A stretch of DNA of 64,000 nt from Candidatus Omnitrophota bacterium (GTDB taxonomy: Bacteria > Omnitrophota > Gorgyraeia > Duberdicusellales > 4484-171). Below the pieces are notes generated by a model. It was not told the DNA's origin. It searched no databases and saw only the letters and a list, made by a program, of their open reading frames with translations. Shown one piece after another: positions 7,634 through 36,046 of the stretch. The stretch's first letter is position 1, and the number at the start of each line of letters is the position of its first letter. The position numbers and the translations under genes were made by a program. Location of the stretch: positions 1 to 64,000 of the forward strand of contig JAIPGM010000002.1 in the NCBI GenBank assembly GCA_021735655.1. The letters run 5' to 3'.

Positions 7634-8059
7634 ATGAGAGATCATGTTTATAAAGTTGTTGAGCTTGTCGGGTCTTCAAAAGCCACCATAGAAGATGCGG
7701 TTAAAAACGCTCTTTCCAAGTCGTCGGAATCTATCAGAAATTCACGATGGTTTGAGGTTAATCAAATAAGGGGGGAAATAGAAGACGGCGAAGTATCGTA
7801 TTGGCAGGTTGGGTTAAAGCTGGGGTTTACAGTCGAAGGGAGCAGCCGGAAAGAAGAGGTACCTGTCGAAACAAGTAAAAAAGCGGCAAAAACAGGGAAA
7901 TACCAATGCAAGGTTTGCAGCTATATCTATGATCCCGAAAAAGGTGACCCGGATAACGGCATAAAAGCGGGGACCTCTTTTAAAGATTTACCCGATGACT
8001 GGAAATGCCCGGAATGCGGTGTAAACAAGGATCAATTTGAAGAAATGAAGGGAGAGTAA
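7634..8059 (+). CDS. Dodecin - rubredoxin fusion protein
   Basis: N-terminal ~70 aa match the dodecin fold sequence ([12 protein letters not shown] ... [11 protein letters not shown] ... [13 protein letters not shown]). C-terminal ~50 aa are a rubredoxin ([14 protein letters not shown] ... WKCPECG). Confidence 0.75.
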
Positions 8060-8060
8060 T

Positions 8061-8915
8061 ATGGATAGAAGAATTACCTTGAAGTCAAAAACACTGTTTT
8101 TGGCAGGCAGGAGAGTCAAAGAAGGAGACTCGGCGTCACAATTTTATGCAGTTGATAGCGAGCTTAAGGAAGTTAAACTAACTGACTACAAAGATTCTAT
8201 AAAAATCATCACCTCTTTTCTTTCTCTGGATACACCTACTTGTAATTTGCAAGTTAAGGAATTTAACAAAAGGGCTAGCAAGTTGGCAGAAGATATTGTT
8301 GTTATCGGCATCAGCCAGGATTTACCTTTCGCCCAAAAGCGCTTTTGTGAGGCGAATAAAATCGAGAAGGTAATAACTCTTTCTGATTACAAAACCAACT
8401 CTTTTGGCATTAATTACGGCCTTTTGATTAAAGAACTGCGCCTTCTGGCCCGTGCGGTTATTATTGTAGATAAAAACAATGTCATTCGTTATGTTTCGAT
8501 TGTTCAAGAGGCAAGTGATGAGCCGGATTACCAGTCAGCGCTAAAGGCACTAAAAGATGTGATCGAAAAACCATTTCTTAAGGGATCCCAAGAGAGGCCT
8601 TCTCATTGTCTTCCCTGTGAAGCCGGTACCCCACCGCTTAAAGAGGGCCGCATAGAGCAGTTAATGGCTACTGTTGAGGGCTGGGAACTTATCGAAGGCA
8701 AGAAAATAAAAAAGACTTTTAAATTCAAAGATTTTATTGAGGCCAAATATTTTTTGGATATTATTAGCGTCATTGCCGAAGAGCAGGGCCATCATCCTAA
8801 CATCACGATTATTTATAATAAAGTAACGATTACGCTTACCACTCACGCTATCGGCGGGCTTAGCGATAATGATTTTATTATGGCTCAGATCATAGATGAA
8901 ATAGGGGGGGCCTGA
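8061..8915 (+). CDS. Thiol peroxidase (Tpx-like peroxiredoxin) fused to pterin-4a-carbinolamine dehydratase
   Basis: Tpx-like region with peroxidatic Cys context (SLDTPTCNLQ) and resolving Cys (KRFCEA). C-terminal PCD/DCoH motif EEQGHHPNITIIYNKVTITLTTH. Confidence 0.7.
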   Translation: MDRRITLKSKTLFLAGRRVKEGDSASQFYAVDSELKEVKLTDYKDSIKIITSFLSLDTPTCNLQVKEFNKRASKLAEDIVVIGISQDLPFAQKRFCEANKIEKVITLSDYKTNSFGINYGLLIKELRLLARAVIIVDKNNVIRYVSIVQEASDEPDYQSALKALKDVIEKPFLKGSQERPSHCLPCEAGTPPLKEGRIEQLMATVEGWELIEGKKIKKTFKFKDFIEAKYFLDIISVIAEEQGHHPNITIIYNKVTITLTTHAIGGLSDNDFIMAQIIDEIGGA

Positions 8916-10201
8916 TGAAAAGAGTCATAGCGATATATCGTTGGGGACTCATATTGATAACCGGATTTGTTTTATTATTTTTGCCGAAACTTGCCCAAGC
9001 CGAGATACACGCTGAAACTATAGAGTATAAAGACGGCGAGGTTATTTTGGAAGGGTATCTTGCTTATGATGACTCAATAAAAGAAAAACGTCCCGGGGTT
9101 TTAGTCGTGCATGAGTGGACAGGCATAAACGATTATATAAAACAACGTGTTAATCAATTGGCAGAAGAAGGTTATATAGCTTTTGCGGCTGATATTTATG
9201 GTAAAAGCATCAGACCGCAAAATAAGGAAGAAGCGGCTAAGCAGGCGGGCATTTACCGTGCCGACCGTAAACTCATGCGCAGAAGGGTACAGGCGGGTTT
9301 GGCCTGCCTTAAAAAAAATCCGATCACCGACCCTTCGCGTATTGCCGCGATAGGTTATTGTTTCGGCGGTGGCGTGGTCTTGGAGCTTGCCCGAAGCGGA
9401 GCTGATGTCGAGGGAGTGGTAAGCTTTCATGGCAACCTGGATACTCCTAACCCGGAAGACGCCGGAATGATAAAAGCGAAAGTGCTGGTTCTTCATGGTG
9501 CCGATGATCCCCATGTTCCAATGAGACAGGTAAAAGATTTTGAGAGGGAAATGGACCGGGCAAATGTGGATTGGCGCATGGTAAGTTACAAAGGCGCTGT
9601 CCATAGTTTTACGAATCCGGCGTCCGGAAACGATCCTTCCACGGGCGCGGCTTACAACAAAGAAGCGGATATGAATTCATGGAAAGAAATGATTGCCTTC
9701 TTTAATAAAATATTTCACGATTATAATTGGCCTTTAGAGGCTATGGCAAATATTACCGATACTAGTGGTAAAGAAGTAGGGAAGGTGCTGTTTAGGGAAA
9801 ACGAAGGCCGCGGAGTAACCATAGATTTAAAGCTACATTCATTTTTACCGGGCAGGCACGCTTTTCATATACATGAATTTCCTGTTTGTGATGCGCCGGA
9901 CTTTAAATCAGCAGGAGGGCATTTTAATCCTTATGGAAAACAGCATGGGTTTCTGAACGAAAAAGGCCACCATGCCGGGGATTTGCCAAATATCATTGTA
10001 GAGGAAAATGGTAATTGCCAGATGTCTTTCACTACGACACAGATAACTTTAAGAAAAGATAAGGAAAATTCTATATTAAGAAAGTTTGGGACATCTCTGG
10101 TGATTCATGAGCTGCCGGATGATTATTTCACCGATCCGGCCGGAGGCGGCGGCAAGAGGCTTGCCTGCGGAACAATAAAAGAAGTGGAGGTAAAAAGGTG
10201 A
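8915..10201 (+). CDS. Secreted dienelactone hydrolase - Cu/Zn superoxide dismutase fusion
   Basis: Signal peptide. DLH-family core (VLVVHEWTGIN ... GYCFGGG ... LVLHGADD). C-terminal SodC motifs (HAFHIHEFPVCD ... GGHFNPYGKQHG ... HAGDLPNI ... LVIHELPDD ... RLACGTI). Confidence 0.75.
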   Translation: MKRVIAIYRWGLILITGFVLLFLPKLAQAEIHAETIEYKDGEVILEGYLAYDDSIKEKRPGVLVVHEWTGINDYIKQRVNQLAEEGYIAFAADIYGKSIRPQNKEEAAKQAGIYRADRKLMRRRVQAGLACLKKNPITDPSRIAAIGYCFGGGVVLELARSGADVEGVVSFHGNLDTPNPEDAGMIKAKVLVLHGADDPHVPMRQVKDFEREMDRANVDWRMVSYKGAVHSFTNPASGNDPSTGAAYNKEADMNSWKEMIAFFNKIFHDYNWPLEAMANITDTSGKEVGKVLFRENEGRGVTIDLKLHSFLPGRHAFHIHEFPVCDAPDFKSAGGHFNPYGKQHGFLNEKGHHAGDLPNIIVEENGNCQMSFTTTQITLRKDKENSILRKFGTSLVIHELPDDYFTDPAGGGGKRLACGTIKEVEVKR

Positions 10202-10713
10202 AGATAGCAGTATTAGTAGAGGATCATTATCAGGTTTTGGAGGTTTGGTATCCATATTTACGCCTTAAGGAAGAAGGTATAGAAACGGTTTTCGTCGGAC
10301 CGGGACGGAAAAAAGAATACGGTAGCAAGGAAGGCTATCCTGCCCCCGAAGAGACATCGGTAGAAACAGCTAGTGTGGATGATTTTGACGGGGTGATTGT
10401 ACCCGGCGGTTACGCTCCTGACTTGTTGCGAAGGTCAAAGAAGATAGTCGATTTTGTGAAAAATATAAATAAACAAAAGAAACTTGTTGCCGCCATATGC
10501 CATGCCGGTTGGGTCTTGGTTTCCGCCGGCATATTGAAGGGAAAGAAGGCGACCTGTTTTTCCGCCATAAAAGACGACGTCGTCAATGCCGGCGCGGAAT
10601 TTATCGACAAGGCGGTCGTTGTTGATGGCAATATAGTAACATCCCGCACTCCGTATGATCTTGGGCCGTTTTGCCGAGAGATCATAAAATTTCTAAAGAG
10701 TAAGGGACGTTAA
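10198..10713 (+). CDS. DJ-1/PfpI family protein
   Basis: AAICHAGWVL nucleophile-elbow motif. 171 aa. Confidence 0.8.
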   Translation: MKIAVLVEDHYQVLEVWYPYLRLKEEGIETVFVGPGRKKEYGSKEGYPAPEETSVETASVDDFDGVIVPGGYAPDLLRRSKKIVDFVKNINKQKKLVAAICHAGWVLVSAGILKGKKATCFSAIKDDVVNAGAEFIDKAVVVDGNIVTSRTPYDLGPFCREIIKFLKSKGR

Positions 10714-10747
10714 AAACAAATTTGTAGTTTAGCGGAGGAGGTAGATC

Positions 10748-11497
10748 ATGGATAAAGCCGATAGATTAGCCGGCCTTTTAAAGCGGCTCAATACCGGGGA
10801 AAATCCGGAAAGCGTGAAGAAGGAGGCCAAAGAATTCTTGGCGGCCCTTGACCCGAAAGACCTTTCATTGGCAGAGCAGAAGTTGATTGAGGCCGGGCTT
10901 TCGTATGAAGACTTACGTAACCTCTGTTGTGTCCACATGGAGGTACTTAAGGGCCAGCTGGAGAATATGAAGATAAAATTAAGCCCGGGGCATGTGATCC
11001 ATACAATGGTTGCCGAGCACGATATGATTTTGGGGTTTTTAGACCAACTTGAGAAGGTGAATAACAACATTCAGAAAATGGACCGATTCAACAGTGACAG
11101 GGAAGAATTTAAAGAATTAAAGCATATTGCCGAGCATCTTGTCGGTTCCGAACCGCATCACAAGCGTGAAGAGGATGTCGTATTCCCTGAGATGGAAAAG
11201 AAAGGGGTCTCGGCGCCGCAGAAGATAATGAGGATGGAGCATGAAGTACTGCGCGCCCGCAAGAAAGACCTTCTTGGTTTGGTGTCGAAGGCGCAGGTGA
11301 TGGATTTTAACGAATTCAAAAGTGAACTCGCGGCAACAGCGGGTTATATAATGTTTACTCTGCGTGAGCATATTTTCAAGGAAAACAATATTCTTTACCC
11401 CACGGCCATTGAAATCATTGATGAACAAGAAAGCTGGGATAGAATGAAGAAAGAGTGCGATACGATAGGGTACTGCTGCTTTACTCCGGAGCGGTGA
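10748..11497 (+). CDS. Hemerythrin-like (HHE cation-binding) / DUF438 domain protein
   Basis: His/Glu-rich helices (HTMVAEHDMI, HIAEHL, EHEVL, REHIFKEN) typical of a hemerythrin-like four-helix bundle. Confidence 0.55.
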   Translation: MDKADRLAGLLKRLNTGENPESVKKEAKEFLAALDPKDLSLAEQKLIEAGLSYEDLRNLCCVHMEVLKGQLENMKIKLSPGHVIHTMVAEHDMILGFLDQLEKVNNNIQKMDRFNSDREEFKELKHIAEHLVGSEPHHKREEDVVFPEMEKKGVSAPQKIMRMEHEVLRARKKDLLGLVSKAQVMDFNEFKSELAATAGYIMFTLREHIFKENNILYPTAIEIIDEQESWDRMKKECDTIGYCCFTPER

Positions 11498-11690
11498 AGG
11501 CGGCCGGCGTCCGATTCCATCCCTGCCCGCGTGCTAGCCTGAAAATGCGCTCATCATTAAAGGGGCGGATGAAAAAGATTCAGAACACCCCATAAAAGAA
11601 ATGGTACGTTTCGGGGTAGAGGGAATAACTTTTGCCGAGGCTGTCAAAGATTCCTAAGTTGTTGATATCTTAAGGGGGGGGTGAGACGAT

Positions 11691-12629
11691 ATGGCTGATG
11701 ATTACGACGTGATTATCATCGGTGGCGGCCCTGCGGGATTAACCGCAGGTATCTACGCCGCCCGGACCGGATTATATACGCTGGTCATCGACAAGAATAT
11801 TCTTGCCGGTGCATTAGGCTCTACGTCAAGAATAGAAAATTACCCCGGCATTCTTAAACCGTGTTCCGGCCGGACGCTGATCGGTAAACTCCGGCGGCAG
11901 GCTCAAAAGTTTGGGGCTGAGCTTGTGCGAGAGCGCGTGTTACACACCGAACTGGAGGGTCCCGTCAAAAAGGTCGTTTCCGAAGCCCGGGAATACCGCT
12001 CTCGTAGCCTGATTGTCGCCAGCGGGGCCATGGGGAGGAAGGCTTCGGTGGACGGCGAAAAGGAGTTCCTGGGCAAAGGGGTGAGTTACTGCGCGGTATG
12101 TGATGCGCCTTTCTTTCGCGGCAAGAAGGTTGCCCTGGTGGGAGGTATCGAGGAAATAAGTCAGGAGATCGGGGTTATCGCCAAATTCGCCAGTGCGATA
12201 TATATTGTAAGTCTTCAGGCGATAGATAGTCCAGGGAAGAAGACGATCGACTTCGCTGATAACCTTACCGTTTTCACTAACCACCGGTTGAGCAAGATCT
12301 ATGGGGCAAGGGCCGTTGAGGGTGTTGAAATAATCTCGGCCGGGGGCCAGCGAAAACAGATCGCGGTCGATGGGGTATTTATGTATCTGCACGGCAATCG
12401 GCCGCTGGTCGATTTCCTTGGTGATCATTTGAAAACTGGAAGCGATCGCTGTTTGATTGTAAATAGAGAGGATATGTCTACTTCCCTCGAAGGGGTGTTC
12501 GCTGCCGGCGATGTTATATGTACCAGGATCCGCCAGGCTGTGGTCGCGGCTTCAGAGGGGTGCATTGCCGCTCTTTCGGCGGAGAAATATATTATGCAGA
12601 GGCGGTCGCCTCGTGCGCAATGGCACTGA
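11691..12629 (+). CDS. Thioredoxin reductase-like FAD/NAD(P) disulfide oxidoreductase (GC-rich copy)
   Basis: DVIIIGGGPAGLTAGIYAAR, redox CAVCDA, second Rossmann GKKVALVGGIE. Local GC is well above the flanking sequence. Confidence 0.75.
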   Translation: MADDYDVIIIGGGPAGLTAGIYAARTGLYTLVIDKNILAGALGSTSRIENYPGILKPCSGRTLIGKLRRQAQKFGAELVRERVLHTELEGPVKKVVSEAREYRSRSLIVASGAMGRKASVDGEKEFLGKGVSYCAVCDAPFFRGKKVALVGGIEEISQEIGVIAKFASAIYIVSLQAIDSPGKKTIDFADNLTVFTNHRLSKIYGARAVEGVEIISAGGQRKQIAVDGVFMYLHGNRPLVDFLGDHLKTGSDRCLIVNREDMSTSLEGVFAAGDVICTRIRQAVVAASEGCIAALSAEKYIMQRRSPRAQWH

Positions 12630-13862: not shown

Positions 13863-14816
13863 ATGAGTAATTTAAGGACAATCAAAGAACGAATATTCAA
13901 AGCGAAGGATTTCGTCATCGCCTGCCACCGGAATCCCGATGGCGATTGCATTGGTTCTCTTTTAGCCTTAGGTTTGGGCTTGAAAACTTTAAAAAAAAGA
14001 GTGATTATGGTTTCTCAAGACGGGGTGCCTTTAAGCTATAGAGGGCTACCGGGGGCCAATAAGATAACTAGAAGATTAGGGAAAGTGCCGGATATGGCCA
14101 TAACCGTGGATTGCAACTCAAAAGAAATGGTTGGCAGGCCGTTTAAGACTATACGGAAAGCAAAGTATTTATTAGAAATAGACCACCATGAATTTAGGGA
14201 ACCATATGGCAACATGTTTCTCATAGACACAAAAGCGGCGTCTGTAGGCGAAATGGTTTATAAGTTATTGTATTATTTAAGAATAGGCATAACCAAAGAA
14301 ATAGCCGAAAATATATTAACTTCTATAATTGTTGAGACTAATTCATTCCGGCTTCCTACAGTAAAGCCGGCTACTTTTAACATTTGTTACAAACTCCAGA
14401 AAACCGGAGTGGACTTTCATAAAATTTCCGAAACAGTTTATTGGTCGAAAACTAAACAAGCAGTAATACTTTCCGGCATCTGTATGTCCAAACTCGAATT
14501 TTCGCGAAACGGTCAAATAGCCTGGTCAATAGTATCAAAAAAAGATTTTTCCAGCGTGAAGGGCAGGGACGAAGACGTAGACCCCGTGGCTAACGATATA
14601 CTTGCGATAAAGGCGATCAAGATAGCAGTTTTATTCCGGGAAAAGAGCCAAAATATTTTAAGGGTAAGTTTAAGAGCAAAAGGAGGCATAAATGTTGCCT
14701 CGCTTGCTTATAAATACGGCGGCGGCGGCCATTTTGATTCTGCCGGGTGCCAGATCACTAATACTAAAAAAGAGATCAGAGGTTTTATCGAAGCGGCCAA
14801 GCGGTTATTGAGATGA
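13863..14816 (+). CDS. nrnA: DHH/DHHA1 phosphoesterase (NrnA-like oligoribonuclease / pAp phosphatase)
   Basis: CHRNPDGDCIGS (DHH motifs), IDHHEF, C-terminal GGGGH DHHA1 motif. Confidence 0.8.
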   Translation: MSNLRTIKERIFKAKDFVIACHRNPDGDCIGSLLALGLGLKTLKKRVIMVSQDGVPLSYRGLPGANKITRRLGKVPDMAITVDCNSKEMVGRPFKTIRKAKYLLEIDHHEFREPYGNMFLIDTKAASVGEMVYKLLYYLRIGITKEIAENILTSIIVETNSFRLPTVKPATFNICYKLQKTGVDFHKISETVYWSKTKQAVILSGICMSKLEFSRNGQIAWSIVSKKDFSSVKGRDEDVDPVANDILAIKAIKIAVLFREKSQNILRVSLRAKGGINVASLAYKYGGGGHFDSAGCQITNTKKEIRGFIEAAKRLLR

Positions 14817-15427
14817 AACGTATACTTATTGTTTTTGCCAAAGAGCCTCAGGAAGGCAGGGTAAAAACCCGGCTGTTGGACTGTTTATCCGCTAGAGAAT
14901 GCCTTAAGCTTTATAAGAAGTTGTTAAAAAATACGGTCAGCTTAGCCAGAAAAGTAAAATGTAGCGGAAGAATTATGGCTTATGATTCTTATAATCAAAG
15001 GGCGCCTTTTCTCGAAAGAATAGCTTCGGATTTTACATTTTATAAACAGGCTGGAAGAGGCCTCGGAGCAAGAATGTTTGATGTTTTTAAAGCGATTCTT
15101 AAAAGTAATACTAAAGCGGTGATTATCGGCTCGGATTCACCGAATCTACCGATAAATTATATAGACCGAGCTTTTGAGAAACTTAGTAAAAACGATCTTG
15201 TCTTAGGCCCCGCCGATGACGGCGGCTATTATCTCATTGGCCTTAAACAGCCATGTAAAAAATTATTCGAAAATATAAAATGGAGCTCTGGTACGGTGTT
15301 CGATAGAACGGTCAAGAAGGCAAAAAAACTAAAGAAGAAGACCACTGTTTTGGATTATTGGTATGACATAGATGAGCCAAAAGATTTAAAATATATTAGA
15401 AAAAAGCCTGAAAGTGTTGATCGATGA
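14813..15427 (+). CDS. DUF2064 (TIGR04282-type) glycosyltransferase-partner protein
   Basis: RILIVFAKEPQEGRVKTRL ... GPADDGGYYLIG. Confidence 0.65.
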   Translation: MKRILIVFAKEPQEGRVKTRLLDCLSARECLKLYKKLLKNTVSLARKVKCSGRIMAYDSYNQRAPFLERIASDFTFYKQAGRGLGARMFDVFKAILKSNTKAVIIGSDSPNLPINYIDRAFEKLSKNDLVLGPADDGGYYLIGLKQPCKKLFENIKWSSGTVFDRTVKKAKKLKKKTTVLDYWYDIDEPKDLKYIRKKPESVDR

Positions 15428-16098
15428 AAGTATCAATAATTATACCAACCTATAATGAAGAAAATAGTATCGAGAGTACTTTAGGGCCCTTGATCGGTGA
15501 AAATGGTTGTGAAGTCATTGTTGTGGATGGATATAGCAAGGATAGGACAAAGGAGATCGTCCGTAGCTACCCGGTTATTTTTAAGCAGGCTGGTAAAAAT
15601 AGAGCTAATCAGCTCAATGCGGGCGCCGGCATTGCCGGCGGGGATGTTTTAGTGTTTCTTCACGCTGATTGTATTTTGGAAAAAGGTGGCTTGCCGGCAA
15701 TTATAAATAGTGTTAAAAAGGGGTTTATCGGCGGATGTTCCTCGCAAAGAATAAATTCCTCGGCTTTAATTTATAGGTTCATTGAGGCGTCAGGAAATAT
15801 CCGGGCAAAGCTCTCTCATATCTTTTACGGCGATCAAGCCATTTTTGTCAGAAGAGACATATTCCAAAAAATTGGCGGCTTTGACGATGTCGCCCTGTTT
15901 GAGGATATTATATTTTCCCGAAAACTTAAAAAATACGGCAAGACCTGTACTTTAAAGAATAAGATATTTACATCTGCGCGGCGCTGGGAAAAACAGGGAA
16001 TCATCAAGACGACCTTGATTAACTGGCTGGTCAGTATTGGATTTTTTTTTGGTATCGCCCCGCATATTTTAAAGAAAATATATTCTGAGGTACGGTGA
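15424..16098 (+). CDS. Family 2 glycosyltransferase (TIGR04283-like)
   Basis: VSIIIPTYNEE ... VVDGYSKDRT ... FLHADC. Translationally coupled to the DUF2064 gene. Confidence 0.75.
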   Translation: MKVSIIIPTYNEENSIESTLGPLIGENGCEVIVVDGYSKDRTKEIVRSYPVIFKQAGKNRANQLNAGAGIAGGDVLVFLHADCILEKGGLPAIINSVKKGFIGGCSSQRINSSALIYRFIEASGNIRAKLSHIFYGDQAIFVRRDIFQKIGGFDDVALFEDIIFSRKLKKYGKTCTLKNKIFTSARRWEKQGIIKTTLINWLVSIGFFFGIAPHILKKIYSEVR

Positions 16099-16101
16099 GT
16101 T

Positions 16102-17532
16102 ATGAAATATGATTACGATTTGATTATTCTAGGCGGAGGAGCTGCCGGATTGTTTGCTGCCAGTGTGGCTAATACTTTGGGAGCAAAGGTAGCGATAGTT
16201 GAAAAGCATAGATTAGGCGGGGATTGTACCTGGTACGGATGCATACCGTCTAAAGCGCTCATTAGATCAGCACAGGTTGCTCATAATCTATGCTGCCCGG
16301 AGAAGTTTGGTTTATCTTTAAAGAGGGCCTGCGGCATCGAAGCCGGTTCGGTGATGGCGCATGTCCGGGATGTAACTATTGAAATCGCCGCTCATCATAA
16401 GCCCGAGGATCTAAGAAAGAGAGGGATCGAGATCATCTTCGGTAGCCCTCATTTTATAGATGAAGCAACCGTTAAGGTCAGCGATAAGATATATAAAGCG
16501 AAAAAGTATATCATTTGTACAGGTTCTCATCCGTTTATTCCAACCATAGAGGGCTTAAGGGAAATAGATTATTTGACTAACGAAACCATATTTGATTTAA
16601 AAGAGCTGCCAGGAAGCTTAATTGTTTTAGGCGGCGGGCCGATCGGCATAGAGCTGGCCCAGAGCCTTAAAAGATTGGGTGTTGAAGTCTCGGTAGTGGA
16701 GATGTTAGATAGAATTGTTCCTAAAGAAGACAGAGAAGTAGCAGAAGTTTTGGAGCAAAAGCTAAAAGCCGAAGGCATCAGGCTTATGACATCTCATAAG
16801 GCGGTTAATTTCGTCAAAAATACTGATAAAATAACAGTAACCCTGGAAGATAAGGGAAAAAATAAATCAGAAATCAGCGCCGATAAAGTTTTGGTCGCGG
16901 TGGGAAGGGCTGCGAATATAGCGGGGCTTGATTTAGAACGCTGCGGTGTAAATCACGATAAAAAATCAATTGAAGTAAACAAATTTTTGCAGACAACCAA
17001 CAAGAATATTTTTGCAGCCGGAGATGCGGTCGGCCCTTATATGTTCAGCCATGTAGCAGCTTATCAAGCTTCGATCTGCGTAAGAAATGCGATGTTTAAA
17101 AGATTAGCCTGGCAGAAAGCGAGTTATGAAAATATTGCCTGGGCTACTTTTACCGAACCGGAAGTCGCCCATTTGGGATTGACCGAAGAAGAAGCGAGAA
17201 AAAAATACAAGAAAATAAAAATTTACAAGTCGGATTATATTAAGTCAGACCGGGCGGTTACTGATTTAGAAAAGGACGGTTTAGTCAAAGTTATCTGCGA
17301 GCGAAACGGCAATATAATAGGGGCGCATATTGTTGGAGCCGCTGCCGGAGAAATTATCCAGGGCCTTTCAATAGCTAAATCCCAGAAAATACCTTTAAGT
17401 AAAATTGCCCAAACAATTTTTGTTTACCCTACTTTATCAGAGCTGATCAAGAAAACTGCGGCCTTGAATTTAGTCGAAAAGATGCAAAACCGGCTTATAA
17501 AGTTAGCTCTTAAAATAATGAGGCAAAATTGA
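16102..17532 (+). CDS. Class I pyridine nucleotide-disulfide oxidoreductase (mercuric reductase / dihydrolipoyl dehydrogenase-like)
   Basis: DLIILGGGAAG, redox-active GGDCTWYGCIPSK, second Rossmann LIVLGGGPIGIE, dimerisation-domain HP motif. Confidence 0.75.
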   Translation: MKYDYDLIILGGGAAGLFAASVANTLGAKVAIVEKHRLGGDCTWYGCIPSKALIRSAQVAHNLCCPEKFGLSLKRACGIEAGSVMAHVRDVTIEIAAHHKPEDLRKRGIEIIFGSPHFIDEATVKVSDKIYKAKKYIICTGSHPFIPTIEGLREIDYLTNETIFDLKELPGSLIVLGGGPIGIELAQSLKRLGVEVSVVEMLDRIVPKEDREVAEVLEQKLKAEGIRLMTSHKAVNFVKNTDKITVTLEDKGKNKSEISADKVLVAVGRAANIAGLDLERCGVNHDKKSIEVNKFLQTTNKNIFAAGDAVGPYMFSHVAAYQASICVRNAMFKRLAWQKASYENIAWATFTEPEVAHLGLTEEEARKKYKKIKIYKSDYIKSDRAVTDLEKDGLVKVICERNGNIIGAHIVGAAAGEIIQGLSIAKSQKIPLSKIAQTIFVYPTLSELIKKTAALNLVEKMQNRLIKLALKIMRQN

Positions 17533-17533
17533 T

Positions 17534-18205
17534 ATGGAAAAAAAGCGATTCGTCAAATCGCCATGGTTTAAAACTATATTTATAGTCGCTGCGCTTGTTG
17601 TGGTAATCATAGTCTTAAGGGCTGTTAATGTTGATTTTTCTAATATTAGCGAGGAGAAGTTCAAAAACTGGATTGAGTCTCTCGGTATCTGGGGGCCTCT
17701 AGCCTATATTGTGTTATATATTTTGCGGCCGCTTATTTTATTTCCGGCTGCTGTTTTTTCGGCTGTGGCTGGTATTATCTGGGGAACCGGCCTGGGATTT
17801 CTTATTCTTTTGATCGCCGCTAATTTATCAGCAACAGTGGAATTTATCTTCGCTCGGTATGCTGCACGTCAGATCATAGAAAGACATCTCGGCCAAAGAG
17901 CAGCCACACTTGACAAAAAAATTCAAAAACACGGGTTCGTTACCGTGCTATTGATACGTTTGATACCCAATCTGGCCTGGGACATCCAGAATTTGACTCT
18001 TGGTTTAACCAGCCTGAAGCTCCGGGATTACTTTTTGGCCACACTTATCGGGATCATCCCCGGGTCTTTTGCTTTGGTATTTTTTGGCGCATCCTTTATA
18101 AAGGTTATTTATAACCCCAAGAATGTTTGGATTTTGGGAGTAGCCATTTTAATTTTCGCCGGTATTTATTATTCCAAGAAATATATTGCCAAGAAACACG
18201 GATAG
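17534..18205 (+). CDS. TVP38/TMEM64 (DedA/SNARE-associated) membrane protein
   Basis: Multiple TM helices and a DedA-family core. Commonly paired with the preceding oxidoreductase. Confidence 0.7.
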   Translation: MEKKRFVKSPWFKTIFIVAALVVVIIVLRAVNVDFSNISEEKFKNWIESLGIWGPLAYIVLYILRPLILFPAAVFSAVAGIIWGTGLGFLILLIAANLSATVEFIFARYAARQIIERHLGQRAATLDKKIQKHGFVTVLLIRLIPNLAWDIQNLTLGLTSLKLRDYFLATLIGIIPGSFALVFFGASFIKVIYNPKNVWILGVAILIFAGIYYSKKYIAKKHG

Positions 18206-18214
18206 AGGTTTTTC

Positions 18215-20224
18215 ATGAACCCTTTTTTGAATGTTTTAGAATCACAAAATATACCGAAAGAATCCTGTTTAAAAAGAGCAGAGTTGACCACCCTGCAGGT
18301 TAATATGGGCGACCTTTGCAATCAAAGCTGTTCGCATTGTCATGTGGGCTCCTCGCCCCAGGGAAAGAAGATCATGCCGCTGGAAGTGGTTGACCGAATT
18401 TTAGAGTTTCTTTCAAAAAACAGAGGGCTGATATTGGATATAACCGGCGGCGCGCCGGAACTCAATCCCAATTTCGATTATTTCCTTGAGAAAGCAAGGC
18501 CGCTGGCCAGGGAGATTGTCATAAGGTCGAATCTGACCGTGTTTTTTGAACCCGGTAAAGAATACTTGCCCGAATTTTTTAAAAGGAATAACATACATCT
18601 TATATGTTCACTTCCCTGTTATGAGGAAAAAAATGTAGACGCCCAAAGAGGCCTGGGTGTATTTGAAAAGAGTATAAAAGCGCTTCAGCTGCTAAATAGC
18701 TGTGGATACTCTCAAGATAAAGAACTGGTCTTAGACCTTGCATATAATCCTAAAGGTATAAATCTGCCTCCTCAACAGGATATCCTTGAAAGAGAGTACA
18801 GAGAAAACCTTAAAAAAAGTTACGGAGTGGAATTTAACAGACTCGTTGCTATGACCAACGTTCCGATAAAAAGATTCAAGGAATATTTGGAAGCCAACGG
18901 CGAATATAGTAATTATGTCCGGCTCCTGGAAGATAATTTCAATCCTGATACGGTTACCGGTATTATGTGTCGGCGGTATCTCAGTGTAGGCTACGACGGA
19001 AAATTATACGACTGCGATTTTAACCAATCACTTAACTGGGCTTTAAAGGACGAGAAGGCTAAGCCTCTTAGTATAGATAAAGTAGATATAAAAGATATTG
19101 AAAACAGAGATGTTATGGTGGGGGAGCACTGTTTTTCATGTACCGCAGGCTTCGGTTCAAGCTGCCAGGGAGCGCTTGACATTAAGGAAACCGTAAAAGC
19201 GTATTACGGCAAAGTCCTTAAAACCACAAAAGACCTAAAGACGACCGCCTGTTGTTCAGTAGATGCTATGCCTAAAAAGCAAAGAGAATACTTGGCTAAA
19301 ATCCACCCCGAAATTTGTGATAAATTTTATGGCTGCGGCTCTCCTATCCCACCGCTTTTAAAGGACCTAAAAGTTTTGGATTTAGGTTGTGGCACAGGCA
19401 GGGATACTTATCTGGTTTCACAGATGGTAGGGAGCAGGGGTTTTGTTATCGGCGTCGACATGACCGATGAACAACTCGATATAGCGAGGAAGCACATTGA
19501 TTACCAGACAGAAAAATCCGGTTTTAAAAAGCCTAATGTTGATTTTAGGAAGGGTTATATAGAAAACCTAAAAAGTGTCGGTATAAAGGATAACTCTATA
19601 GACTTGGTTATATCAAACTGCGTTATTAATCTTTCACCGGATAAGATAGGGGTGTTCTCGGAAGTTTTCCGTGTCTTAAAACCGGGAGGTGAATTTTATT
19701 TCGCCGATGTATTCTGCGGCCGCCGGATGCCGGAACACCTCAAGCATGACTCGGTACTTTACGGTGAATGCCTGGGAGGGGCGCTTTACATAGAGGATTT
19801 TCGCCGTAGTTTAAGAAAAATCGGCTGTTTGGATTATAGAGTAGTAACTTCCCGAAGAATAGCGCTTAACAATAAAGAAGTTGAAGAGAAAGTCGGCGGG
19901 ATTGATTTTTACTCTATGACTATACGGGCTTTTAAGCTGGATGATTTGGAAGACATCTGCGAAGATTATGGCCAGACTGCTGTTTATCTTGGCACGATAT
20001 CCGGATGCGCGCACCAATTCAAACTTGACGATCATCATCTGTTTTTTACCGGCAAACCGATGCTTGTGTGTGGGAATACCGCTTCAATGCTTTCAAATAC
20101 ACGGTACGGTAAACATTTTAAAATAGTTGGAGATAAAAGCCGTCATTTTGGGCCGTTTCCCTGTGGGCCAACTCCCGCGGCATCAAAGACCGATGTAGTC
20201 AAAACCGGCGGCAGTTGTTGTTAA
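18215..20224 (+). CDS. arsSM: Fusion of arsenosugar-type radical SAM protein (ArsS-like) and arsenite S-adenosylmethionine methyltransferase (ArsM-like)
   Basis: N-term has the radical SAM cluster motif CNQSCSHC plus LSVGYDGKLYDCDFNQSL and a Cys-rich CFSCTAGFGSSC region. C-term has ArsM Cys pairs (TACCS, YGCGSP), the SAM motif VLDLGCGTGRD and VLKPGGEFYFADV. One continuous 669-aa ORF. Confidence 0.7.
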   Translation: MNPFLNVLESQNIPKESCLKRAELTTLQVNMGDLCNQSCSHCHVGSSPQGKKIMPLEVVDRILEFLSKNRGLILDITGGAPELNPNFDYFLEKARPLAREIVIRSNLTVFFEPGKEYLPEFFKRNNIHLICSLPCYEEKNVDAQRGLGVFEKSIKALQLLNSCGYSQDKELVLDLAYNPKGINLPPQQDILEREYRENLKKSYGVEFNRLVAMTNVPIKRFKEYLEANGEYSNYVRLLEDNFNPDTVTGIMCRRYLSVGYDGKLYDCDFNQSLNWALKDEKAKPLSIDKVDIKDIENRDVMVGEHCFSCTAGFGSSCQGALDIKETVKAYYGKVLKTTKDLKTTACCSVDAMPKKQREYLAKIHPEICDKFYGCGSPIPPLLKDLKVLDLGCGTGRDTYLVSQMVGSRGFVIGVDMTDEQLDIARKHIDYQTEKSGFKKPNVDFRKGYIENLKSVGIKDNSIDLVISNCVINLSPDKIGVFSEVFRVLKPGGEFYFADVFCGRRMPEHLKHDSVLYGECLGGALYIEDFRRSLRKIGCLDYRVVTSRRIALNNKEVEEKVGGIDFYSMTIRAFKLDDLEDICEDYGQTAVYLGTISGCAHQFKLDDHHLFFTGKPMLVCGNTASMLSNTRYGKHFKIVGDKSRHFGPFPCGPTPAASKTDVVKTGGSCC

Positions 20225-20237
20225 TAAGATATAACCA

Positions 20238-20256
20238 TTCCGCCGCGTCGGCGGAA
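20238..20256 (+). terminator. GC-rich hairpin ttccgccg-cgt-cggcggaa followed by an A/T run. Likely the arsSM terminator.
   Basis: 8-bp perfect stem with a 3-nt loop read directly. Its reverse-complement twin lies at 20310-20328. Confidence 0.45.
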
Positions 20257-20566
20257 AAATTTGCTATCTGAAACACCTTTGTTCTATTAGCTTATTTTAA
20301 TACGGTCAATTCCGCCGACGCGGCGGAATTGGTTTGACAATACGGTAGATTAAACAAGGAAGTAAATAATGAACTCTACACCCGAAGAAATCAGAGATAT
20401 GGAACATATGCACAGGAAAATGAGCTATAACCAGATTACGGAGTATATTTACGCGGGAAACAACCTGTGTTGTCAGACACATTTTGAGATGGAGTTATTA
20501 GCAAAAGGAATTTCCGCTAAATACAGTGCAAAAAGCCTTTTTAGTTAATTATACCGGGAGGTCCTG

Positions 20567-21583
20567 ATGTCAAAAAAACAATGGTTTATAATATTATTTT
20601 TAATAAGCGGGGTATTTATGAGGGATAATTCATTAGCTGAGGAAAATTTGAAGAAGGCTACATTTGCCGGAGGATGTTTTTGGTGCATGGAGGCGGATTT
20701 TGAGAAAGTCAAAGGTGTCGAGAAGGTGATTTCCGGATATACCGGCGGGGCCGGTGAAAACCCGGTTTATGAAGATTACAGTCAAAAGGGGCATATTGAA
20801 GCCGTGGAAATTTATTACGATCCTTACCGAATAAGTTATCGGAAATTACTGGATATTTTTTGGACCAAGATAGACCCGATTGATGCCGGCGGCCAGTTTT
20901 GCGATCGGGGCCAGGCTTACACCACAGCGATTTTTTACCATAACCGGGAACAAAAGCAGTTGGCTGATGAATCAAAACAGCGGTTGGAGGAGTCAGGCAG
21001 ATTAAAACAGCCCATTGTTACTAAAATCATCAAGGCCGGCAAATTTTATCCGGCTGAAGACTATCATCAGGATTATTATAAAAAGAACCGGTTAAGATAT
21101 AAATTTTACCGGTTTAACTGCGGCCGCGATCAGCGTCTCAAAGAGATCTGGGGCCGGGTTAGCAAGGATGAGTTAAGAAATAGGTTAACTCCGATGCAGT
21201 ATAAAGTTACTCAAGAAGACGGCACAGAACCGGCGTTTAAAAACCAATACTGGGATAATAAAAGAGAGGGTATCTATGTTGATATTGTTTCCGGCGAGCC
21301 GCTGTTTAGCTCTTTGGATAAATTCGAATCCGGCACTGGCTGGCCAAGTTTTACCAAGCCGCTTGAGCCAGACAATATTGTCGTAAGGGAAGACAGGAGC
21401 TGGTTTTCGCTGAGGACGGAAGCAAGAAGCAAACAGGCCGATTCGCACCTTGGCCATGTATTTGATGACGGCCCAAAACCCACGGGGTTACGCTACTGCA
21501 TAAATTCAGCGGCTTTAAGGTTTATTCCTAAGGAAGATTTAGAGAAGGAAGGGTACCCAGAATATAAAAAACTTTTTGAATAG
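20567..21583 (+). CDS. msrAB: Bifunctional peptide methionine sulfoxide reductase MsrA-MsrB, secreted
   Basis: Signal peptide. MsrA GCFWCME motif. C-terminal MsrB motif RYCINSAAL with upstream [10 protein letters not shown]. Confidence 0.85.
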
Positions 21584-34413: not shown

Positions 34414-35013
34414 ATGTCGCAAAGCATTGAGAATAAAGTAGTTAGCAGGATTTATGGTAAGAATAGGGGTTGGGTATTCACTCCAAATCACTTTCTTGAC
34501 CTTGGAAGCCGTACAGCCGTGGCTCAAGCCTTGGGGCGGTTGGCAAAAGCCGGTACTATTCGCCGATTGGCACATGGACTATATGATTATCCTGAGAAAC
34601 ACCCTACGCTGGGCGATCTTCCGCCTAACTATGAGCGGATAGCCCAAGCTTTGGCAGGAAGGGATAGTTTAAAAATTCAGCCATCGGGGGCGTATGCCGC
34701 CAATCTGCTCGGGCTTACTGAGCAGGTTCCTGCAAAGATTGTTTTTCTGACTGACGGCCCTAATCGCAAAGTACAAATAAACAAACAGCAGGTTGTCTTA
34801 AAAAGGACAACTCCTAAAAATATGGCCACTGCCATGCGGGTGAGCGGTCTGGTTATCCAGGCTCTGCGTCATTTAGGCCAAGATCATGTGGATGATAAAA
34901 TAATCGGGATGCTTAAGAAAAGATTATCCAGCGATGACAAGCGTCAGCTTATAAACGACCTTCGTTACGCTCCTGTATGGATAGGAAATATATTTCGGCA
35001 ATTACAAGGATAA
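34414..35013 (+). CDS. abiEi: AbiEi-family antitoxin/transcriptional regulator (type IV TA / abortive infection)
   Basis: N-terminal winged-helix AbiEi_4-like region (VFTPNHFLDLGSRTAVAQALGRLAKAGTIRRLAHGLYDY). Confidence 0.7.
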   Translation: MSQSIENKVVSRIYGKNRGWVFTPNHFLDLGSRTAVAQALGRLAKAGTIRRLAHGLYDYPEKHPTLGDLPPNYERIAQALAGRDSLKIQPSGAYAANLLGLTEQVPAKIVFLTDGPNRKVQINKQQVVLKRTTPKNMATAMRVSGLVIQALRHLGQDHVDDKIIGMLKKRLSSDDKRQLINDLRYAPVWIGNIFRQLQG

Positions 35014-35020
35014 GAAGCCT

Positions 35021-36046
35021 GTGGACAAATTCGTATTATTGAGTGATAAAGACAAACGCGCCTATTTCGAAGTAGCCGCGGCTGACTTGAATGTAATGCC
35101 ACAGCTTATTGAAAAGGATTTCTGGGTTTGTTGGATACTCAGGACCCTTTTTTCGTTACCGTCATCAGGCAGTCACTTGACATTTAAGGGCGGTACATCA
35201 CTTTCAAAATGCTATGACGTTATCAGGCGTTTTTCAGAAGATGTCGATATTTCGATAGAAAGGTCTTTTTTATCAAGCCAACAGGCCATTGAACCTAAAA
35301 AACAAGAAAGTAACAAAGAAAACCAGCGAAGACTTGAAAGGTTACAGTTAGCCTGTCAAGCAAAGATCAGCGGCACTCTAATCCCAGAACTGAAAAAAAG
35401 TATTGCCGCTATTCTGACCGATAGAAAAAAATGGAATCTCGAAATCGATTCTAACGACGCATTAAAGCAGACAGTTTTGTTTACTTTCCCACACGCTTTG
35501 ACAAATAGTATGGAAAGCTACGTAAAGGCCGCTGTTAAAATTGAGTTTGGTTCCAGAGCCGACCATTGGCCTGTTGAAAATATGGCTGTTACGCCATATG
35601 TTGCTAATGTTTCAGACGATGTGACTATTGAAGGTGCATCAGTGCGTGTTTTAGCCGCAGAGCGGACCTTTTGGGAGAAAGCGACCATACTTCATATGAT
35701 ATATCATTATCCTGAAGGTAAGAATGTGCCTCCGCGGATGTCGCGGCACTATTATGATTTATTCGCGATGGTAGATTCTTTTGTATACAAGAAATCTTTA
35801 GAAAAAATATCGCTATTGAAACATGTATCCGATCATAAGTCTTTATTTTTTAAAGCTAACTGGGCGCATTATGAAGAGGCTAAACCGGGCAGCTTGCGGC
35901 TGGTGCCGCGCGATGACCAAATAAGCCAGTTGAAAACTGATTACCGACAAATGCAACAAATGTTTTTTGAGGATCCCCCGTCATTTGAGAGTGTTTTAGA
36001 GAAACTAAAAATAGCGGAAGATAAGATTAGCAGGGTCAAACAATGA
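35021..36046 (+). CDS. abiEii: AbiEii/AbiGii-family nucleotidyltransferase toxin (DUF1814)
   Basis: NTase motif FKGGTSLSKCYDVIRRFSEDVDI. 341 aa. Immediately downstream of abiEi. Confidence 0.7.
   Translation: MDKFVLLSDKDKRAYFEVAAADLNVMPQLIEKDFWVCWILRTLFSLPSSGSHLTFKGGTSLSKCYDVIRRFSEDVDISIERSFLSSQQAIEPKKQESNKENQRRLERLQLACQAKISGTLIPELKKSIAAILTDRKKWNLEIDSNDALKQTVLFTFPHALTNSMESYVKAAVKIEFGSRADHWPVENMAVTPYVANVSDDVTIEGASVRVLAAERTFWEKATILHMIYHYPEGKNVPPRMSRHYYDLFAMVDSFVYKKSLEKISLLKHVSDHKSLFFKANWAHYEEAKPGSLRLVPRDDQISQLKTDYRQMQQMFFEDPPSFESVLEKLKIAEDKISRVKQ

Follow-up and report, generated by a model that had tools for sequence, protein, structure and literature searches.

An ArsS-ArsM fusion gene at the end of an arsenosugar-type operon in a Candidatus Omnitrophota bacterium

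The window analysed in this work, a 64,000-nucleotide (nt) stretch of contig JAIPGM010000002.1 from a Candidatus Omnitrophota bacterium (assembly GCA_021735655.1), contains at positions 18215-20224 of the forward strand an open reading frame (ORF) of 669 amino acids (aa) in which a radical S-adenosylmethionine (SAM) domain of the ArsS family is joined to a methyltransferase domain of the ArsM family. Judging from its sequence, the gene product is probably a bifunctional enzyme that carries out both of the opening stages of arsenosugar biosynthesis. Among the arsenic species of food webs, arsenosugars are major ones; to our knowledge, their synthesis is understood for its first two steps only, and from cyanobacteria alone. 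An initial annotation, made from the letters of the DNA, had proposed the fusion, and we find it in one uninterrupted frame with both halves as named there. The coordinates of the gene, its domains and its neighbours are compiled in Table 1.

A GAGG ribosome-binding site lies 7 nt upstream of the ATG that opens the frame, and a TAA directly followed by a second TAA closes it, so that read-through of a UGA as selenocysteine (Sec) is ruled out at its end. The GC content around the gene (~0.42) is the same as that of its surroundings. A frameshift at 19150-19250 and a stop between the two halves had been raised as possible weaknesses; the frame is continuous across this region, with no stop between the halves, and runs unbroken through the junction (aa 321/322, nt ~19178). 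The architecture was checked in the 120 top-scoring clusters at 90% identity, which come from many independent assemblies, and all of them are two-domain proteins of 628-736 aa. Since the junction is in frame and the same architecture recurs in every one of these clusters, we exclude both chance and a sequencing frameshift as explanations. Alignments of the fusions also place a linker of variable length between …GSSCQGAL and KETVKxYYG, from 0 aa in the window protein to ~70 aa in P0100, which is how a genuine inter-domain linker would be expected to behave. In the full-length AlphaFold (AF2) model both domains are confident, the predicted template modelling score (pTM) is 0.52 and the predicted local distance difference test (pLDDT) is below 50 at aa 318-329; this pTM and the low-pLDDT hinge suggest two independently folded bodies that are joined flexibly.

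The N-terminal half was assigned to ArsS, in agreement with the initial annotation. TIGR04167, the equivalog-level NCBIfam model for the 'arsenosugar biosynthesis radical SAM (seleno)protein ArsS', matches aa 19-321 over its positions 2-303 of 303 with 407.9 bits, above its curated cut-off of 300. This half also matches PF04055 (Radical_SAM) and PF12345/DUF3641 (173 bits, positions 1-134 of 134), and it contains both motifs quoted earlier for it, CNQSCSHC (C35/C39/C42) and DCDFNQSL (aa 266-273). Eight cysteines are invariant among 79 ArsS domains: C35, C39, C42, C252, C267, C306, C309 and C317. The four from C252 to C309 are candidate ligands of an auxiliary Fe-S cluster, because all 79 domains conserve them and the fold neighbours of this half are auxiliary-cluster enzymes. 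These neighbours, the SPASM/twitch enzymes SkfB (6efn), anSME (4k36) and BtrN (4m7s), align with ~232 of the 321 residues at an identity of 19% or less, and no solved ArsS structure was found among the PDB matches and fold neighbours.

The last of the eight cysteines occupies a position at which the family can carry selenocysteine. The arsS genes of Anaerococcus (L061 and L064; ~7844-7882) have an in-frame TGA (GSSUGG) in the column of window Cys317, the window residues G314-S-S-C317 align with this site, and a review of selenoproteomes lists a GxxU motif for TIGR04167 (PMC13188914). The window ArsS is thus a Cys-containing version of a protein family in which some members are selenoproteins. 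The Sec site lies 4 residues before the fusion junction, and Cys317 falls in a low-confidence tail of the structure model.

The C-terminal half aligns end to end with solved arsenite methyltransferases, which bears out its annotation as an ArsM with cysteines and a SAM-binding motif. A phmmer search against the PDB matched aa 323-653 to residues 23-356 of the chain of 5evj, an arsenite methyltransferase, with an E-value of 1.9e-108, and matched CmArsM (4fr0/4kw7) with 1.4e-93; PF13847 and the SAM motif VLDLGCGTG are also present. Its cysteine features are C346/347, C374, C469, C519 and a C-terminal CC. C346, C374, C469 and C519 are invariant in 41 aligned fusions, and they are the presumed counterparts of C44, C72, C174 and C224 in CmArsM numbering. 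The NCBIfam whole-protein models gave a different answer, with scores of 188 bits against a cut-off of 263 for NF008823, 162 against 500 for NF040538, and 114 against 400 for the arsenosugar-specific NF038099 (AsSugarArsM). The scan with ArsM profiles suggested in the initial annotation therefore places this half in none of these narrowly trained sub-families, and with the PDB alignment and PF13847 we regard it as an ArsM-family domain that lies outside them.

The initial annotation had set the fusion against the separate adjacent genes of the organisms studied. The fusion is not unusual, however: it is widespread outside cyanobacteria, occurs in both domain orders and is already deposited, as a 100% identical protein, named only 'ArsS', is in NCBI from a Candidatus Omnitrophica metagenome-assembled genome (MAG). 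For a census, one genome per species was scanned and a single stop-free frame across both halves was required; 31 of the 80 species-representative loci returned carry a single-ORF fusion. They belong to Omnitrophota, Elusimicrobia, Planctomycetia, Thermodesulfovibrionales/Nitrospirota, Desulfobacterales, Dissulfurispiraceae, Caldimicrobium, Spirochaetota/Leptospiraceae, Ca. Magnetocorallium and Campylobacterales/Arcobacter. Full-length tblastn matches in Rhodanobacter, Dokdonella, Anaerococcus, Brocadiaceae, Krumholzibacteriia and Acidobacteriota were discarded after an ORF check, which resolved them into adjacent separate genes; such unfused pairs occur in either order. The fusions themselves also come in two orders, according to an exhaustive search of representatives at 50% identity: ArsS→ArsM in P0061, P0122, P0123 and P0126, and ArsM→ArsS in P0121 and P0132, both verified with NCBIfam. 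Among RefSeq proteins with the ArsS→ArsM order are those of Desulfosediminicola (WP_136805211.1) and Deferribacter thermophilus (WP_423302845.1), and the isolate fusions are named there 'ArsS' or 'methyltransferase domain-containing protein'.

In a neighbour-joining tree of the ArsS domain, built without bootstrap support, the fusions form two separate clades, and unfused ArsS proteins are nested in the Omnitrophota clade, one of which (L037) is the nearest neighbour of the window protein. Two fused clades with nested unfused members suggest repeated fusion, fission or both. Taken with the 120 two-domain clusters, the 31 fused loci and the existence of both orders, the two clades argue that the fusion is under selection. 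Two fusions (L015 and L016) look mosaic, with an ArsM half 66% identical to that of the window protein and an ArsS half 40% identical, which hints at domain exchange or an independent fusion. In Omnitrophica CG22 (L018, 4000-6125) a frameshift inside the ArsS half splits the fusion gene, as a pseudogene or an assembly error. Another protein of 519 aa (P0219) has an N-terminal StyB-like flavin reductase domain fused to ArsS, and this domain may supply the radical SAM cluster with electrons from within the protein. No mention of an ArsS-ArsM fusion was found in the literature searched, the reach of which did not include the primary ArsS papers (Xue 2019; Cheng 2021). The architecture is nevertheless well populated, annotated automatically and located inside a known gene neighbourhood, and it is in this sense a fairly ordinary find.

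The gene neighbourhood points to the same pathway. As annotated, the fusion gene ends an operon, being the last of six genes that run in the same direction (13863-20224) and are tightly packed, no overlap or gap between them being longer than 9 nt. The upstream glycosyltransferase genes of the initial annotation are present; by curated cut-offs they are themselves members of the arsenosugar-associated families TIGR04282 (DUF2064) and TIGR04283 (GT2), which NCBI names arsenosugar biosynthesis glycosyltransferases. This indicates that the entire operon, beyond the fusion gene alone, is devoted to the pathway. We counted the partner genes within 7 kb of arsS in 85 arsS loci, fused or unfused: the GT2, DUF2064, reductase and DedA genes are each found in 37 to 40 of them, with 40 for the disulfide reductase and 38 for DedA, so the DedA neighbour named earlier is upheld both by its PF09335 match and as a conserved partner. 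DedA adjoins the fusion gene in seven loci (L001-L007), and in every further long contig examined the reductase, DedA and fusion genes recur in this or a permuted order, accompanied by GT2, DUF2064 or both.

Two other labels of the initial annotation stand in part. The first gene of the operon is an NrnA-like DHH phosphoesterase, as proposed, but only the DHH and DHHA1 domains match, the NF053633 cut-off is not reached, and no such gene was found in any of the 85 loci (0/85), by which we reject it as a member of the pathway. The MsrAB, HAD and D-LDH genes downstream were likewise discarded, being essentially never near arsS in these loci. The oxidoreductase described as similar to mercuric reductase is truly a conserved partner of arsS; it is, however, a generic class-I disulfide reductase, with 353.9 bits against a cut-off of 454.45 for the MerA model TIGR02053 and a score below the LipDH cut-off as well. 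Its translation has no cysteine at the C-terminus and so lacks the C-terminal Cys pair of MerA, and it is equally close to LipDH (2eq6) and MerA (5x1y). Our literature search on DedA, mercuric reductase and arsenic together returned nothing relevant.

Fusions in other organisms show how the activities may be paired. In Rhodanobacter fulvus Jip2 (L017:4043-6229), a single stop-free frame of 729 aa, measured from stop to stop, lies directly upstream of arsS-arsM-TIGR04283-TIGR04282; in it a VTT/DedA domain is joined to a complete pyridine-nucleotide disulfide oxidoreductase. A DUF2064 (TIGR04282-like) and a GT2 (TIGR04283-like) domain share one frame in MAGs of Bacillota and Brocadiia (L071:6572-7903 and L076:10272-11636). 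Since the fusions ArsS·ArsM, DUF2064·GT2 and DedA·reductase are each seen somewhere, the six activities fall into three pairs. In three Omnitrophota loci (L004, L006 and L007), the module has a transaldolase (TAL_FSA) gene and further genes of pentose-phosphate metabolism next to it or within it, which may tie it to ribose metabolism or be a coincidence.

In the mechanism that we propose, the chemistry of ArsM and ArsS is taken from the literature, while the domain identities, the intact catalytic residues and the conservation of fusion and module are our own observations. ArsM provides methylated As(III), and ArsS adenosylates dimethylarsenite (DMAs(III)) to DDMAA (5'-deoxy-5'-dimethylarsinoyl-adenosine) by a redox-neutral addition of the 5'-deoxyadenosyl radical; the adenine is removed later, allowing further derivatisation (PMC13598754; bioRxiv 10.64898/2026.04.29.721666). 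The ArsS of Synechocystis uses ArsM products, and its gene is co-transcribed with arsM. In the window protein, the C-terminal ArsM domain would bind As(III) on its cysteines and methylate it twice with SAM, and the N-terminal ArsS domain would use its CX3CX2C [4Fe-4S] cluster for the reductive cleavage of a third SAM, the overall conversion being As(III) + 3 SAM -> DMAs(III) -> DDMAA. The fusion would most likely keep DMAs(III), which is toxic, oxygen-labile and volatile, from escaping between the two active sites. Cys317, at the Sec position, stands just before the hinge and the mobile Cys346/347 loop of ArsM about 30 residues further on, and this region would mediate the hand-over of DMAs(III). 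The TIGR04282 and TIGR04283 transferases presumably process the ribose or ribosyl moiety, and the disulfide reductase and DedA would probably reduce thiols or As(V) and provide a step at the membrane.

A bolder version of this proposal, which we put forward tentatively and consider somewhat doubtful, is that of a six-activity module of three pairs operating in non-phototrophs, in which DedA and the reductase would be a missing component of the steps around or after DDMAA and the Cys/Sec317 tail would be an arm that carries DMAs(III). Possible roles of the DedA–reductase pair would then be the recycling of ArsM/ArsS thiols or As(V) reduction, and membrane translocation or a lipid-linked step.

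Several points weigh against a bifunctional arsenosugar enzyme. The ArsM half reaches none of the NCBIfam whole-protein cut-offs, that of NF038099 among them, and the AF2 model (pTM 0.52) has no confident ArsS-ArsM interface. The parts of the window that were annotated show neither arsenic uptake genes nor classical ars resistance genes. Channelling is dispensable for function, as two Omnitrophota loci (L037 and L058) have an unfused ArsS, 55-66% identical to the ArsS part of the window protein, with no ArsM within 7 kb and with the reductase, DedA, TIGR04282 and TIGR04283 alongside. The ArsS biochemistry known to us is confined to cyanobacterial, unfused enzymes. As a separate observation, a divergent methyltransferase (35% identity) follows the reductase in L062.

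Of the alternatives to the proposed enzyme, we consider it unlikely that the reactions run in the other order, with ArsS adenosylating As(III) or methylarsenite (MAs(III)) before ArsM methylates, or that the product is a lipid-linked or otherwise non-classical organoarsenical. Such an order is compatible with the ability of ArsM-family enzymes to methylate organoarsenicals such as hydroxyarsinothricin (bioRxiv 10.64898/2026.04.29.721666), with NF040538 being among the best ArsM-type matches and with the relatives whose ArsS has no nearby ArsM, and the conserved DedA membrane protein and a GT2 resembling polyprenyl-phosphate glycosyltransferases would suit a lipid-linked product; however, ArsS uses DMAs(III) in vitro (PMC13598754), and the window protein keeps all four cysteines with which canonical ArsM binds As(III). 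A soft metalloid other than arsenic (Se, Sb or Te, for instance) appears highly improbable as the physiological substrate. The ArsS family is rich in selenoproteins, the ArsM half is under all curated ArsM cut-offs and the annotated parts of the window show no ars resistance genes nearby, but the equivalog-level TIGR04167 model is passed by more than 100 bits, and the match to a solved arsenite methyltransferase reaches an E-value of 1e-108 with the As-binding cysteines intact. That an assembly or frameshift artefact merged two neighbouring genes has a negligible probability: arsS and arsM are indeed separate and adjacent in the studied cyanobacteria, Rhodanobacter, Anaerococcus and Brocadiaceae, and the Omnitrophica copy in L018 is frameshifted, but this possibility is already refuted by the continuous frame, by an architecture common to 120 independent top clusters with linkers of variable length, and by the presence of the fusion in RefSeq isolate genomes. 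A bifunctional ArsS-ArsM enzyme is thus the explanation that we retain.

The fusion gene is followed by a palindrome of about 100 nt with a free energy of -52.6 kcal/mol (z -9.1), which is the probable terminator of the operon. Its two 19-nt hairpins (20238-20256 and 20310-20328) are exact reverse complements of each other, and none of 100 shuffles gave two sites; the idea of a dispersed repeat was abandoned, as these are the only two sites in the window. Between the palindrome and msrAB lies a 59-aa ORF (20369-20548, forward strand) that has no Pfam match and may be a gene remnant or non-coding. Elsewhere the window carries many redox-stress genes, clustered at 8061-12629 and 20567-21583. Two unusual fusions stand in the first run, one of Redoxin with pterin-4a-carbinolamine dehydratase (8061-8915) and one of dienelactone hydrolase with Cu/Zn superoxide dismutase (8915-10201), together with DJ-1/PfpI, DUF438-hemerythrin and a TrxR-like reductase, and MsrA-MsrB lies downstream. 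A fluoride riboswitch (RF01734; 32956-33018, forward strand; 62.7 bits, where the gathering score is 34) sits in a 2.9-kb stretch without ORFs of at least 150 aa, and a DUF6088/AbiEii pair at 34414-36046 is a type IV toxin-antitoxin or abortive-infection module.

Table 1. Positions in the window of the ArsS-ArsM fusion gene, its domains and sites, the other genes of its operon and the downstream palindrome.
Feature	Position	Strand	Remarks
ArsS-ArsM fusion gene	18215..20224	+	669 aa plus TAA; ORF, profile and PDB matches
ArsS domain, aa 1-321, radical SAM core plus DUF3641	18215..19177	+	
CX3CX2C radical SAM [4Fe-4S] motif, C35, C39, C42	18317..18340	+	Invariant in 79/79 ArsS domains
C252, C267, C306, C309, further invariant cysteines	18968..19141	+	79/79; candidate auxiliary Fe-S ligands
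Cys317, counterpart of the family selenocysteine (GxxU motif)	19163..19165	+	Anaerococcus TGA column
Flexible inter-domain hinge, aa 318-329	19166..19201	+	pLDDT <50; homologues insert linker here
ArsM domain, aa 322-669, As(III) SAM methyltransferase	19178..20221	+	5evj/CmArsM alignment, PF13847
DHH/DHHA1 phosphoesterase, NrnA-like, first in operon	13863..14816	+	NF053633, 112 vs cut-off 350
TIGR04282-family (DUF2064/CofC-like) arsenosugar-associated transferase	14813..15427	+	193.3 bits vs cut-off 134
TIGR04283-family arsenosugar-associated GT2 glycosyltransferase	15424..16098	+	221.1 bits vs cut-off 182
Class-I flavoprotein (pyridine-nucleotide) disulfide reductase	16102..17532	+	CxxxxC at C42/C47, active-site His->Tyr
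DedA/VTT-domain membrane protein	17534..18205	+	PF09335
Palindrome of ~100 nt, two 19-nt GC hairpins (20238-20256, 20310-20328)	20233..20334	+	-52.6 kcal/mol

These results place a complete-looking arsenosugar module in anaerobic, non-photosynthetic Omnitrophota, Nitrospirota, Campylobacterota, Spirochaetota and Desulfobacterota, among which it is widespread. The recurrent fusions provide independent genomic support for the hand-over from ArsM to ArsS, and the fusion offers a compact single-protein system for enzymology. Concrete candidates for later arsenosugar steps are the oxidoreductase–DedA pair and the DUF2064–GT2 pair, and the conserved and unstudied pair of DedA and disulfide reductase is a more novel lead than the fusion itself. 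Cultured carriers are available in Rhodanobacter fulvus Jip2, Desulfosediminicola and Deferribacter thermophilus.

The closest known system is that of Synechocystis sp. PCC 6803, in which ArsM and ArsS are reportedly encoded by adjacent, co-transcribed genes, as Xue and colleagues in 2019 and Cheng and colleagues in 2021 are said to have described. The same two enzyme families are involved, their functions are genetically linked, and the chemistry, As(III)->DMAs(III)->DDMAA, is presumably the same. Unlike Synechocystis, the window has a single polypeptide, ArsS followed by ArsM with a 0-aa linker, in a non-phototrophic Omnitrophota host, and its ArsM half is under the cut-off of the cyanobacterial NF038099. 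The solved ArsM proteins from Chlamydomonas (5evj) and Cyanidioschyzon (CmArsM, 4fr0/4fs8) align with this half over their full length and share the SAM motif and the cysteines; they differ in that the N-terminus of the window ArsM is tethered to ArsS and in the C-terminal GGxCC tail, which is invariant among the fusions. In the synthesis of arsinothricin, ArsL and ArsM likewise pair a radical SAM enzyme that forms a C-As bond with an ArsM-family methyltransferase (bioRxiv 10.64898/2026.04.29.721666); ArsL, however, belongs to a different family and transfers a 3-amino-3-carboxypropyl group before methylation, whereas the window protein is ArsS by the curated model. Compared with the NCBIfam arsenosugar set, all three models of which (TIGR04167, TIGR04282 and TIGR04283) are passed within the window operon, this operon adds the non-conserved DHH phosphoesterase and, as conserved partners that are not named pathway members in the libraries used, the disulfide reductase and DedA.

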